Assembly: GCA_964016885.1 (NCBI GenBank) | Contig: OZ024743.1 | Coordinates: 106,516,001 to 106,580,000 of the forward strand | DNA from: Eledone cirrhosa | Lineage: Eukaryota | Direction of reading: 5' to 3' | DNA length: 64,000 nucleotides | Made by a program: the position numbers and the translations under genes | Notes under the pieces: generated by a model | What the model saw: only the letters and a program-made list of their open reading frames with translations | Told to the model about the DNA's origin: nothing | Databases searched by the model: none | Shown here: one piece after another, positions 5,758 through 61,084 of the stretch | Position numbering within the stretch: position 1 is the stretch's first letter | Layout of the letters: every line of letters starts with the position of its first letter

Positions 5758-6458
5758 AATAACTAGAAATTGATTAACTTATAAATAAACATGAATAATC
5801 ACAGGAGATAGTTTTTACAAGGGTGTAACCACACATAGCTAGGTAGTTAACTAAATAAAGTTGATCAGAACTTCAAAAATACATACCTTATAATATGATT
5901 AATCTTCCCTGTATATATTCCATTAAAGAAATATATTTCACCAATTAATCGGATGATAAACCAGGGAAGTGGACGCTTGGATTTTCAACAAGGAAGAAGG
6001 TCCAGCGATCCGTGTTTACACTTCAAGATCAAATCATCGACTGGCCAGCACCACGTGTTATATCTACTAGAAATACACACATCATACTAGCTTCGTCCTA
6101 GTGGCGTGAATAGGGTTATCGACAACTAGAAACAGCAGTCGAGTCCTTTCAACAGAGTTAGCTCTTAAATTAAGGAGCCGTATTTATATATCCATATCCA
6201 AAATTAAGATAAATCAAATTAATTTAATCTAAATCCTACCTAGCTATGTGTGGTCACACACTTGTAAAAATGATCTCCTCTGATTATTCTTGTTTATTTA
6301 TATGTTAATCAATTTCTAGTTATTATAAAATGGTCGGACCTACTCGTTAGAATCTTAGAGCTTATTTTACGGGTGATATGGCGCATGTCTTTCTGATATG
6401 ACACCCATAATTTTGATTTAGATTAAATTCATTTGACTTATCTTAATTATGGATATTG
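5758..6458. mobile_element. Family B non-coding hammerhead cassette with inversion, between (TA)n tracts
   Basis: Inverted arms ~5758-5845 / ~6240-6325. Homologous to 42187-43222. Confidence 0.75.
5903..5997 (-). ncRNA. Type I hammerhead ribozyme, U3-A8 variant core (family B)
   Basis: Minus strand: TCTTCCTTG-TTGAAAA-TCCAA...TTGGT-GAAA-TATATTTC tttaat GGAATATA-TA^CAGGGAAGA. Helix I is 9 bp and helix III is long. Confidence 0.7.
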
Positions 6459-6471
6459 ATATATATATATA

Positions 6472-6677
6472 TAGGAAAAAGTATGATCCCGACGGCAGAG
6501 CTCAAGCCGTTTCAACTGCTATTTCTGGACTCGAAATAGTCCAGAAATAGCCGTCGAAACGGCTTGAGCTCTGCCGTCGGGGTCATACTTTTTCCTATTT
6601 CCCACTCTACTACCCTAAGTATTGAGTACTCTGGTGCGTTATCGTCCATCTGATTCCTTACCACAATTCCTTTGTTA
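6472..6677 (+). mobile_element. Family A fold-back cassette (hammerhead 3' half GAAAC-GGC..GCC-GTC^GGGGTC plus tail)
   Basis: Inverted repeat 6472-6598 centred near 6535, followed by a tail with TATTGAGTAC. Flanked by (TA)n on both sides. Confidence 0.75.
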
Positions 6678-6718
6678 TATATATATATATATATATATAT
6701 ATATATATAAATATATAA

Positions 6719-7160
6719 AAGTTTATCCCGGGTTCAATCAGGCGTAACCATAGTAAGTAATGTACTCAATACAAGGCAAAGTATAAATATTTAATATAGA
6801 AAGGCTTCTTCAGGAATAGAACTATTTCATTCGGGGAGAAATATATGTGTGCGTGTGTGCTTGTAGACATCAGGCCAAAGGTATTATTAGCTTAAGTGAA
6901 ACTTAAAAATCAGGAGTGGCAACCCCAGAGTGAACCTCACTTTAGAATTCTTTCTGCCTTTGTTATTCTAAATATAGATTTTAAAGAATTCCCTTTCCTT
7001 TAAACCCATCAACCAATGACCTCCACCCGTCCCAATCACCACGCTCTCCTACCACCAGAAAAGATACAAATACCACCACATTACTTGGACGGATAGTCGG
7101 CTTGCTGATGATGTCTCCTGAATGAAACAGTTCTAGTCCTGTAGAAGCCTTTCTATATTA
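6719..7160 (+). mobile_element. Family J cassette with degenerate hammerhead (CTGATGA 7105, GAAAC 7124, GTC 7136)
   Basis: Inverted arms ~6792-6840 / ~7113-7160. Homologous to 39070-39568. Flanked by (TA)n. Confidence 0.6.
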
Positions 7161-56525: not shown

Positions 56526-59500
56526 ACATATATATATATATCAGATCAATAATTTGTGGTCTTTAATTTATGTATATACATATATACAACATGCTTCCGA
56601 TTAAACAGATAGTTTTCGCAAAATCAAATATATGCAAAATGGTCAAGTGATGATACGATCTATGTGAATTTAACACGAATAATGAGAAAATATAACATTT
56701 GTCAAGCTGATCTTACTTCACATCACAACCCAATTTATGTTCAGACCTGGCTTACCTCTTCTTTGACGTGACGTCAGGCAGTACTAGGGACTTTATTGTT
56801 ATCTTTACTTGCCACTAGCAACGGAGAGAGCTTAAGACACCATGTTTTGTCTTTTCTTAACAGAGAGATGACCTATCGCTGATGAAATGGCCCCACGCCG
56901 AATTACTTAATACGTGCCATCGTTACCCAATATTCTGCACATGGTTGCACCTTTCGGTGCAGGACCAGCATTTAACAGTAGAAACATCTTACCCAAACGA
57001 ATTCGTTCCCCCGCTGTTTAACGAAATTGTGCACTCGGGGCAGCCGGGTTCGAATTTCAAAAATACGAAATTAGTTTTCCATTGAGTGAGTGAGGCAACG
57101 GCCGGAGCTAAACCCATTCTATTCGATTTATTTCGTTTCCTAATTATATATATATATATATATATATATATATATATATATATATATATATATATATATA
57201 TATATATATATATATATATATATATATATATATATATATATGGGTGTGATGTGGGGGGCCTTTGTGTGTGTGTGTGTGTGTGTGTGTGTGTGTGTGTGTG
57301 TGTGTGTGATTGTGTGCTTGTGTCTGTGTCTGTGTGTGTCTGTGTTTATTACAGTATCTAATTAAAGCAAGCCCAAAGTCTTAATGAACATATCATGCAA
57401 TAAGTGAGACAGGTAGGTATTTAGGGAGAAACATTGTCCGTTATTTCATGAGATTAATTCTATATTTAAATACAGCTACGCCAAGTAAGTGCACTCATAC
57501 CACATACGACAAAGGAAACAAACAGAGAAACACACGTGCGTCTAGCAGAAGTAAAACAGAGACAGAAAAATCTACGAAACAATATTACAATGACAAAATC
57601 AAAGAAAGGATCCAGTTTAATACATCTAATGGCATTGTGTCAACAGTAATTAATCAGTATGGAAGCCAACAAATTTTAGTTTGTTTCTCTCAGATTGAGA
57701 TAGTGTTAAACAATACTTTACAGAATGTGTTCACGTAAAAGACAAATGTAAACACTCACACACACACAATACACACACACGCACACACACACACACACAC
57801 ACACACACACACACACACACACACACACACACACACACACACACACACACACACACACACAAACACACGCACTCACACACATACACACAGACACACACAC
57901 ACGAGCGCGCGCGTATGTATAGCTAGCCTGAAATATAACAGACATGATTCGTAAAAAATAATGGCCAGATAATGTATTAGTATAATACGAATAACATTGG
58001 AAACAATAATGCAATAAAATGTATACAGGTATATATGTGATAGAATCTAAGTGTGTATCTGGAATGGGTGCAGTTGTATATATATATATATATATATATA
58101 TATATATATACGTGTGTGTGTGTGTGTGCATGTGTGTGTATGTATACACACACACACACACACATATATATATATATGTAATGTTGTGCGTCTTAGAGAG
58201 CGTGTCTGTGCATGCGTATGTGTGAATTTGATAATACAATTATTATGTTTTCCTTTTTGGCTTTATACATTATAGAATGTCCTTCAAGATTTTCCAGTCT
58301 CGGTTTTTGACATTACTTCTACTTGTAATTTGATTATATTGTTTACAATGTACCATCTCTAATCTTTTCTATCTTTGTATATCCAATTCAATCACTTCCT
58401 AATTAGTAAGTGCCTCGCTTGGCTGAGTCGAATATTATAAGGCAAGTCTCGGTTATGTCGTTGTTTCGTAACTTGGTTAAACTATGCCGTGTATAAAGAT
58501 CGGCCTAATACATATCTACACACTGAATGTATTAATTAAATGTAATTATGTTATAAATCTATAAAATGTTTGATCATGCTAAATTCACAATTTACCCTAC
58601 AAATTTACATTTGGTCTCGTAGTAGGGGCCTGCATGACGTCATACTGAGCATCGAACATTCACCCCCAGCCCATTTAAATCATGTGCAATGTATCTCGCA
58701 TCCGTCCTTTTGTTATATAAGACAATCGTTTGTTATATTCACTTATTATTCTTGTGAAGAGCTATAGGCTTGTGGAATCATTAGTGAGTTTAGTTACGAC
58801 ACTTTATGTTCTGAGTTCAAATCATGGCAATTTCAACTTTGACTTCCATCTTTCCAGTACAGGTCATCTGCTGATTTGATATAATCGATGTAACCCTCCT
58901 CACAAATGTGCACTCATATTTTCTAAGTTAGGAAATGTTAACTTATCCGCTGAACTTACAAGTTGACTATTGCAAAAACTGAACATTCCCCTTCACATAC
59001 ACTGCCTTGCCGTTGCTTTTCTTCTCGATACTATTCAACTTTACGTACCCCAAAATTCGCTTACAAGATCCTATCTTTACTACCAACGATATTTCATAGG
59101 CATCAATCAGGATAGCCTAAGCTGAGCCAAATTCAATTGAAATATTTCTAGTTGTGGCTCTCTTTCATAGCAAATGGACATTGCGCCTTACTTTCACAGA
59201 AATATATATAAGAAATCAGAGTAACAATTTATCAAGTGTCTCCGTATAGATAGTTGATATATATTACTAGTAATTTGACATCCTATGAGAAAAAGGTGGA
59301 AGTGATACATATAAGAATGAAGGATGCAGAAATAAATAAAAAGAAACCCATGCATAGCATAAAGAAAAGTATATTTTTAAAATGCATCACTGATAAATGT
59401 TTACAAGAAGTGAAATGATATGAAAGAATGGAGGGTAAGAGTGACAGACAATGGGAATAACTGTTTCAGATAAGAACGGGGACACAAAGCATGACAATAG

Positions 59501-59688
59501 AGGTAATAATATACAAACGAATACAAATACTGTAATAGGATATGCGAAAGGTATAAATAAAAAGAATATACTTTCTGAGAAAGTGGATATACAGTATAGA
59601 AGGTGAGGAAATAAAGTACGGGACGTGTATATATGTTAATGTGAGGTATTGTCAAGAAAAGGATTTGCAGACACACACACAATGTAGT

Positions 59689-60003
59689 CTGTACCGAGAT
59701 GATAGTCTTTTGACGAAGACTGAGAGTGGACCCTGCGCTAGCGATAGCTTTAGTAAGGAGTCTATGGGTTTTTTTAAACGTTTCAACTTATCCATTTAAG
59801 TTGAAACTAACCTATCTGTGGTGAATTTCCTTGATATGACATTCAATATATCAGACGGTCGGTACTACCCGTACAAAATGGCCAATGACACTTTCAATTA
59901 CATTAGTGAACATTCTACCCAGCCAGCCAGCATAACTAAAAACCTGATCAATAAAGTCTCAGTGAGCTTTTCTCATTTATCAGTAAACCAGCATATTTTC
60001 ACT
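59689..60003 (+). pseudogene. Naiad-type PLE reverse transcriptase fragment
   Basis: LYRDD...FKRFNLSI*VETNLSVVNFLDMTFNI..GRYYPYK..ND..NYI..HS.QPASITKNL, with one in-frame stop. Confidence 0.82.
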
Positions 60004-61046
60004 GATGATTCCGTAAAGCGCTGGCTCGGCGCGCATTCCTAGATACGTTAGAATACTCTAAGTAAGAGTGAACATTTAAAAGAAAATGTATAGAGGTATG
60101 TATATGGTATAACACATCATATAATATAGAAGTTGCTAGAATAACGGAGAAATTCCTATCAAACAATATCTTTATAAATGTACATTTTATACGCCCACTA
60201 CTAGTAAGGTTTATAGTGTTGACAGCCTAGAGTTTCTTTAATTTATTTCTGAATACTATACTGAGGAATATGATTTCAGTTTAGGCCTGTATCTCGAGTT
60301 TAGAAGACCATGACATCCGATATAGTTTCCAGTGTGAGATCCTAGCAAGAAGTAGATTATATAACGGCAATAAAACACCTTTTAATATGAACATGATATA
60401 TGACGTCAAATATATATTTAAAAAAAATAAATATGAGACAATTTCGGCTTGTAAACATAAACTATATAAAGCATTCTTATATTGCAGCATAACATTGTAT
60501 CTTAACGGATAGTGCTGCCAATATGTAGATGACATATGCCATGATGTGGTAAACTTATACGCGGTTATTTGTATATATATGCAGTTGTACTGCTGCCTCA
60601 GTTTATAACAGATCAGTTTGGATTTGTAGAAATACATGTTGATAGGATCCCTATTCCTAGTTTGCTAGAAATTAACTTTAAATAATTGTGGCTAGAAGAT
60701 ATTTCGGATATGTAAACCAAACTATCTAGTCTATATGAAGAAACATCTGTACGTATCTCCACTTTCTTTCTTAAACTATTGGAAGTCTTATGTTTTCTAT
60801 GATCGTTATCCGTCTATTTGTTGTATATGGTTAATGTTGTCCTATGAACGAATCAGTATGATATGCTCCAAAGGCAAATTCCCACGCGTGGTTTTGGATG
60901 TTGTAGATAAGTTACATAGACACCGAAATCGATAATTCACTTAGGCTAGTGTGTCAACAAATCGATTTAAATTCTCTTATATATATATAATATATATATA
61001 TTATATATATATGTGAGAAAAACCACAGACCCTCCATCTCAACTCA

Positions 61047-61084
61047 CCTTTTGAAAAGCAGAAGAACTGCGAAACCGGTAAAGG
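61047..61084 (+). ncRNA. Minimal type I hammerhead with U3-A8 core (family D; cassette 61012-61210)
   Basis: CCTT-TTGAAAA-GCAG aagaa CTGC-GAAACCGGTA^AAGG. All helices are intact. Confidence 0.78.

Follow-up and report, generated by a model that had tools for sequence, protein, structure and literature searches.

Do short repeats whose hammerhead-like cores read UUGANAA instead of CUGANGA still encode RNAs that cut themselves? This question is raised by a 64,000-nucleotide stretch of the Eledone cirrhosa genome (assembly GCA_964016885.1, contig OZ024743.1, positions 106,516,001 to 106,580,000 of the forward strand), hereafter called the window, in which three repeat families, named B, D and F, carry cores with U3-A8 in place of C3-G8. 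An initial annotation made from the letters alone had proposed that these cores belong to at least two unrelated families and were under selection for activity. Our analysis indicates that they are probably type I hammerheads carried by short repeats, likely non-autonomous Penelope-like elements (PLEs), of which B and D would be self-cleaving and F is likely dead. Evidence for B and D comes from the window, and sequencing reads were additionally used for F. Published work is cited from excerpts of the papers concerned.

The window is AT-rich (GC 19-38%), with 105 tandem-repeat rows that are chiefly (TA)n and other dinucleotide runs. Because such microsatellites dominate an unmasked repeat search, repeat structure was taken from masked self-BLAST. 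Hammerheads were sought with a type I descriptor leaving positions 3, 8 and 13 free, with a score of 12 or more as the strict threshold and 30 local dinucleotide shuffles of the window as a chance control. At this threshold the window holds four U3-A8 matches with A13 (shuffle mean 0.0, n=30) and four C3-G8 matches (shuffle mean 0.0). The single hit without a 3-8 pair (26600) comes from a C3-G8 family, one arm of which has decayed. A descriptor with U3-A8 and C13 gave no match at any threshold from 9 up, and the F copies fail the strict descriptor. The five heptamers first cited were all in place (TTGAAAA at 5988-5982 on the minus strand, 8365-8371, 61051-61057 and 54215-54209 on the minus strand; TTGAGAA at 42860-42866). 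Three further minus-strand cores were found at 8281-8275, 50243-50237 and, in a decayed B copy, 42409-42403 (TTCATAA). All eight cores have the type I layout and U3-A8, and G5 is lost in one of them. Helix I, helix II, G(A/C)AA and the NUH cleavage triplet are in register in the U3-A8 cores, and GAAA with AUA or GUA is present in 6/6 copies of B and D. The in-register helices that had been described were thus confirmed, with the qualification that helix II of B opens with a U-U mismatch and that pairing in D and F is imperfect.

In BLAST comparisons B showed no detectable similarity to D or F, and D and F were 77% identical over 65 nt (E 8e-11). The U3-A8 cores therefore fall into two lineages, B and D/F, rather than three; U3-A8 is family-wide in both, which bears out the claim of at least two unrelated families. 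The expected covariation of positions 3 and 8 was seen between families only, both positions being invariant inside each family. Position 7, said to vary freely, does so in B (A, G or U) but is A in 5/5 D/F cores. At the gathering cut-off of Rfam RF00163 the sole match in the window was the C3-G8 copy at 41563 and no U3-A8 core reached the cut-off, in agreement with the prediction that searches based on CUGANGA miss these motifs. Among the matches listed in an Rfam scan by E-value, most were microRNA look-alikes of foldbacks. No open reading frame and no tRNA was found in B, D or F. Pattern scans did not find the D/F motif in metagenome or viral contigs, nor the B motif in metagenome contigs. 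Among the sequencing runs listed for family B none was an RNA run, which carries no information on its expression, and the minor shares of B in organisms B, C and D were left out of the evidence.

Family B is represented by the following features.
42851..42948, plus strand: type I hammerhead with a 9-bp helix I, core UUGAGAA (42860-42866), U-U followed by a helix II of 4-5 bp, GAAA (42912-42915), a long hairpin helix III and AUA (42937-42939), with a predicted cut after 42939; folding z-score -3.11.
5903..5997, minus strand: hammerhead of a second insertion, core UUGAAAA (5988-5982); folding z-score -2.87.
42335..42418, minus strand: decayed copy with core UUCAUAA (U3 and A8 kept, G5 changed) and a deletion in loop II, on the inverted arm of the 42-kb insertion.
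42188..43222: insertion with two outward-facing arms of a non-coding unit of ~545 nt, both unit junctions and (TA)n flanks.
5759..6469: second insertion with the same two junctions and TA repeats at both ends.
42841..42880, plus strand: possible helix between the leader (42841-42849) and loop II (42872-42880), 8/9 pairs, a tentative pseudoknot or inhibitory hairpin.

The two B insertions are ~80% identical to each other. At paired and core positions, 54 of 55 are identical between them, and the sole change, U-G to C-G, is not disruptive. The loops differ at 10/40 positions (Fisher p=0.0006 against paired and core positions) and the two flanks together at 38/262 (p=0.006). This pattern supports selection on the putative fold of B. 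The arms of the 42188..43222 insertion form a circular permutation or partial tandem of the unit, and the presence of both junctions in both insertions implies a tandem or circular template. The leader-loop II pairing, whose two sides change length together between the B insertions, is a weak lead: 43 of the 529 14-mers of the unit (~8%) pair equally well, so that the null is weak, and shuffles reached the pairing in 0/2000 cases in one insertion and 217/2000 in the other. Template switching could create such a pairing without selection. An nhmmer match at 43654-43696 (E 0.008) was rejected because it has no core.

The D/F lineage comprises the following features.
61047..61084, plus strand: minimal type I hammerhead of D, dimer-type, with a 4-bp helix I, UUGAAAA, a 4-bp helix II, GAAA, a palindromic ACCGGU helix III and GUA.
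8362..8397, plus strand: D hammerhead, right arm of an inverted pair.
8249..8284, minus strand: D hammerhead, left arm of that pair; the first helix II pair is G-G.
8120..8460: D insertion flanked by (TA)n on either side, its arms inverted and just one of them extended by a tail of ~65 nt.
54183..54218, minus strand: hammerhead-like motif of F with UUGAAAA (54215-54209), GCAA (54195-54192, C13 being 54194), GUA (54188-54186) and a helix I of three U-A pairs.
50211..50246, minus strand: second, more decayed F insertion with UUGAAAA and GCAA.
54472..54486, plus strand: inverted F arm, truncated at its 5' end, that has GCAA and whose ACCGGU palindrome is intact.

GCAA was thus present, as first noticed, in all visible F copies (3/3, from two insertions). 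F lacks the G12 A13 A14 A15.1 set and is filed as hammerhead-derived, not as a type I member; its reading as a hammerhead rests on its homology to D. Across the five D/F copies of the window, 75% of 40 cells are paired and three of eight pairs are changed on both sides, with for example C-G in D and U-A in F at one position of helix I. The covariation score was reached by 7/500 shuffles, which suggests selection on the D/F fold. The earlier claim of selection is therefore supported for the fold of B and suggested for D/F through the compensatory pairs. Minimal, dimer-type PLE hammerheads are defined by an unstable palindromic helix III; ACCGGU provides it in D and in the majority of F reads, B having the long hairpin instead. 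Two copies of 61040-61092 are predicted to pair via the ACCGGU palindrome at -22.5 kcal/mol. The folding z-scores of the short D/F motifs are unremarkable (-1.28 to +0.54).

Two observations concern the surroundings of F. Its interior (54260-54470) contains a CCAAT-like and two CACGTG motifs, which we take to be promoter-like, and a segment at ~54403-54436 is separately abundant in reads. At 50102-50773 an F copy abuts a copy of the canonical C3-G8 family back to back, with 3' ends outward, possibly as one chimeric insertion formed through template switching.

The state of F beyond the window was assessed with reads placed on it at 80% likeness: 2216 contigs from run X1, 6029 reads from X8, 7 contigs from X5 and 2 contigs from X7. 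Since reads were recruited for their resemblance to an F copy, D-type copies are under-represented among them. In X8, a reduced-representation library, 98% of the placed reads continue into unlike sequence, and organism A of the read runs is not necessarily the species of the window. X1 and X8 each have six T>C places, none of them at 54210, which puts G8 below 5% and A8 at 95% or more; this excludes, for F, a CUGANGA consensus from which the visible copies would have decayed. X1 has three G>T places, none at 54194, so that A13 is below 5% and GCAA makes up at least 95% of contig depth. X8 has four G>T places, and 54194 is not among the three of them listed; a minority of A13 is possible in X8. 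C3 is not among the A>G places listed, but two further such places exist in X1 and ten in X8, which makes only a majority of C3 unlikely. The G>T change that would give A13 is likewise missing from a contig of organism B and from a low-depth contig of organism D. Within these limits of the reads, the retention of GCAA in X1 means that it is family-wide in F rather than the decay of single copies. In X8, 1957 of 2042 reads restore the ACCGGU palindrome, helix II is lengthened to 5 bp by two changes, present in 1696/1885 and 1805/1885 reads, and common one-base insertions fall within the helix II loop (479/2030 and 438/1885). A single record in X7, the loose end behind 54203 of a low-depth organism D contig, seems to read UCGAAAA (U4C) at the F core.

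The assignment to PLEs relies on the layout of the insertions. Outward-facing arms, a one-arm tail and flanking (TA)n are described for PLE insertions (PMC8557442). The U3-A8 repeats match this layout in their inverted or partial-tandem arms, one-sided tails and (TA)n targets, although the one-sided extension of B (125-144 nt) exceeds the 30-40 bp given in that paper's excerpt. Elsewhere in the window, the following features provide the context.
18162..22529, plus strand: decayed PLE with reverse transcriptase-like and GIY-YIG pieces and direct repeats.
41563..41607, plus strand: canonical C3-G8 hammerhead (Rfam RF00163, 35.2 bits), with other copies at 40590 (-) and 50691 (+); internal control family.

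The decayed frame at ~18.5-22.0 kb matches proteins with reverse transcriptase plus GIY-YIG; one of ten matches, at 67% identity over 39% of the query, is a gene model from Octopus bimaculoides. The direct repeats of this element hold a C3-G8 hammerhead-like motif (22383; 18214) that is not homologous to B or D/F. The architecture of this motif resembles that of B, in that helix II opens with U-U and helix III is long. BLAST found no similarity of B or D/F to the sole PLE pseudo-long terminal repeat (pLTR) in the window. Four C3-G8 families are present (7710/7897/56454; 40590/41569/50691; 26600/26722; and the decayed-PLE repeats), which brings the hammerhead-bearing lineages to at least six within 64 kb, each with a Watson-Crick 3-8 pair. 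Outward-facing inverted arms in (TA)n are seen in three of the C3-G8 families too (7613-7994 and 56362-56523; 40508-41651 and 50265-50773; 26502-26820).

A U3-A8 core is not new, contrary to what had been implied. It is already published for PLE hammerheads, and the added GCAA change of F is the only unusual part. In Schistosoma, a U3-A8 variant of PLEs was reported with ~1,300 hits, opposite-strand pairs and low in vitro activity (Cervera and De la Pena 2014, PMC4209133). The minimal hammerheads of animal PLEs in that paper resemble the present ones in being type I, with U3-A8, a short helix I and (as in D/F) a palindromic helix III, and in occurring mostly as dispersed copies and as opposite-strand pairs 100-700 bp apart. 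The differences are that D/F lack the additional nucleotide after A9, that their helix II is shorter, and that F has GCAA. A cephalopod host was not found in one of the two supplements of the paper. Natural U3-A8 covariation, active in vitro, and a U10.1-U11.1 mismatch were also reported by Perreault et al. (2011, PMC3088659), who describe stem I-stem II pseudoknots as common. What sets family B apart from those variants is that an animal repeat unites U3-A8, U-U and a long helix III. Among the active variants in the excerpt there is an insertion, U13a, but no substitution of A13. Our literature search, of incomplete coverage, found no natural A13C or GCAA core, and looking for A13 in the excerpt of PMC2553840 gave no result.

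B can also be compared with retrozymes, which are repeats with type I hammerheads, likely derived from PLEs (PMC7229834; bioRxiv 10.64898/2026.07.22.740005). Like the animal non-LTR (non-long terminal repeat) retrozymes, B is a non-coding unit, a few hundred nt long, that contains a type I hammerhead, and an axolotl family shares the U-U at the base of helix II. Unlike retrozymes, B forms inverted partial tandems instead of head-to-tail arrays with two hammerheads, and its helix III is long; no head-to-tail units with two consecutive hammerheads were found for B within the window. The hammerhead of the Poseidon PLE of Anolis (Frangieh et al. 2024, PMC11167929) is likewise of pLTR type with a one-sided genomic tail, but it is C3-G8, belongs to an autonomous element and needs protein for cleavage.

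In the mechanism that we favour, the reverse transcriptase and endonuclease of a Penelope-like helper element would copy the repeats, as their arms, tails and (TA)n targets suggest. Tails in PLEs are attributed to reverse transcription starting at two internal sites (PMC11167929). The long helix III of B would permit a single copy to cut after AUA, and a tandem transcript of the ~545-nt unit would yield unit-length RNAs able to circularise in a retrozyme-like manner. D would cut only as a dimer through ACCGGU, possibly with the help of protein, by analogy with known PLE hammerheads; the dimer model of hammerhead cleavage is covered in a review (PMC6765202). The swap to U3-A8 would be tolerable because the 3-8 pair is kept and position 8 contributes its 2'-OH, which in G8 is the general acid of the hammerhead (PMC11300833). 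F would be a derivative of D in which the fold was kept and A13C became fixed, with a helix I of three U-A pairs; it would be dead yet spreading. It could still spread because PLE insertion needs no cleavage in vitro, where hammerhead mutants leave insertion unimpaired (PMC11167929).

Several points weigh against this interpretation. The window yielded no autonomous element bearing the hammerhead of B or of D/F, so that the helper is inferred. The conservation of B comes from two insertions and, against the downstream flank alone, gives p=0.08. The covariation of D/F comes from five related rows, in which such scores are possible without structure, and the double change at 8365 looks accidental, as the sister arm has G-G. 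In every U3-A8 copy tested the predicted catalytic fold lies 1.7-7.9 kcal/mol above the minimum-energy fold; for B the difference is 4-8 kcal/mol and the minimum is a competing hairpin predicted to bury G12-A13. The catalytic fold of the canonical Rfam copy lies 12.7 kcal/mol above its minimum, so that this test discriminates poorly. In a type III hammerhead scanned by mutation, only a G3-C8 swap rescued activity in the region (PMC9901934), which makes the activity of U3-A8 dependent on context. Finally, the intact fold of the F majority speaks somewhat against F being dead.

That last point leads to an alternative in which F is a working hammerhead variant whose C13 is tolerated, either via a reversed A13-C17 contact (C13 with A17) or through protein-assisted folding. 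The persistence of GCAA across the family, together with the A8, 5-bp helix II, palindrome and GUA of the majority and the confinement of the listed common insertions to the helix II loop, fits this view, as do the compensatory changes that set F apart from D. These changes may, however, predate A13C. A13 belongs to the core consensus used for rejecting candidates in the excerpt of PMC3088659, helix I has only three U-A pairs, and the strict descriptor failed on F. D has A17 along with A13, so that no rescue is needed there. The literature search did not confirm the 13-17 contact. We consider a working F unlikely, and the same low credence goes to an abundant repeat family, common to several related animals, with a functioning core of U3-A8 and C13; with C13 and only three U-A pairs in helix I, F is more likely to be inactive. 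A slightly less probable alternative is that no U3-A8 motif cuts today, the fold either serving the helper protein as a signal for binding or folding, or being simply inherited from active ancestors. PLE hammerheads do cleave poorly in vitro (PMC4209133), cleavage is dispensable for insertion, no read ends were found at the cut site in Anolis RNA-seq (PMC11167929), competing folds are predicted, and F has spread despite its changed core. Against it stand B, in which all catalytic letters and the 3-8 pair persist between ~80%-identical insertions, and the Watson-Crick 3-8 pair, important for catalysis, that all four C3-G8 families and both U3-A8 lineages retain.

The motifs might instead be chance look-alikes in AT-rich miniature DNA transposons whose arms are ordinary terminal inverted repeats. 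The long inverted arms, the AT-rich UUGAAAA and the D/F fold z-scores would agree with this; the shuffle mean of 0.0, the structure-biased conservation in B, the one-arm tails and permuted junctions, and an Rfam-recognised family with the same layout do not. We regard this account as very improbable overall, and for B it is largely refuted. The type I hammerhead reading, with B and D probably functional and F probably dead, thus remains our preferred one.

Some features of the window stand apart from these families. A SINE-like (short interspersed nuclear element-like) dispersed repeat of ~190 nt, 80-90% identical between copies, is present at 1831-2043 and in at least eight other places (5169, 8948, 10336, 10506, 14235, 15451, 15748, 35337 and 52678), with no tRNA found by ARAGORN. 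A 210-aa frame at 22533-23165 (-) has no Pfam match and presumably resembles a Tc1/mariner-type transposase fragment. A multi-copy foldback family (6474-6675, 17226-17363, 23793-24112 and 30370-31196) has no hammerhead by the descriptors used, and directly beside its copy at 30.9-31.2 kb lies a short reading frame, which we take to be similar to the start of a PLE reading frame. Large nested inverted repeats at 61324-63223 (1.2-kb foldback, 88% identical) are related to 4709-4937.

The U3-A8 core described here adds another host for a published variant. Counts based on CUGANGA or on the Rfam type I model overlook whole families, which in this window amount to two of the six hammerhead-bearing lineages. 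D and F are sister families that differ at A13 and thereby form a natural experiment. If F does not cut, it would give genomic support to the in vitro finding that hammerhead cleavage is dispensable for the spread of Penelope-type elements, a point relevant to the question of why they carry ribozymes. If F does cut, the hammerhead core consensus at A13 would need widening, and a class of ribozymes would have been missed by searches for CUGANGA and GAAA.

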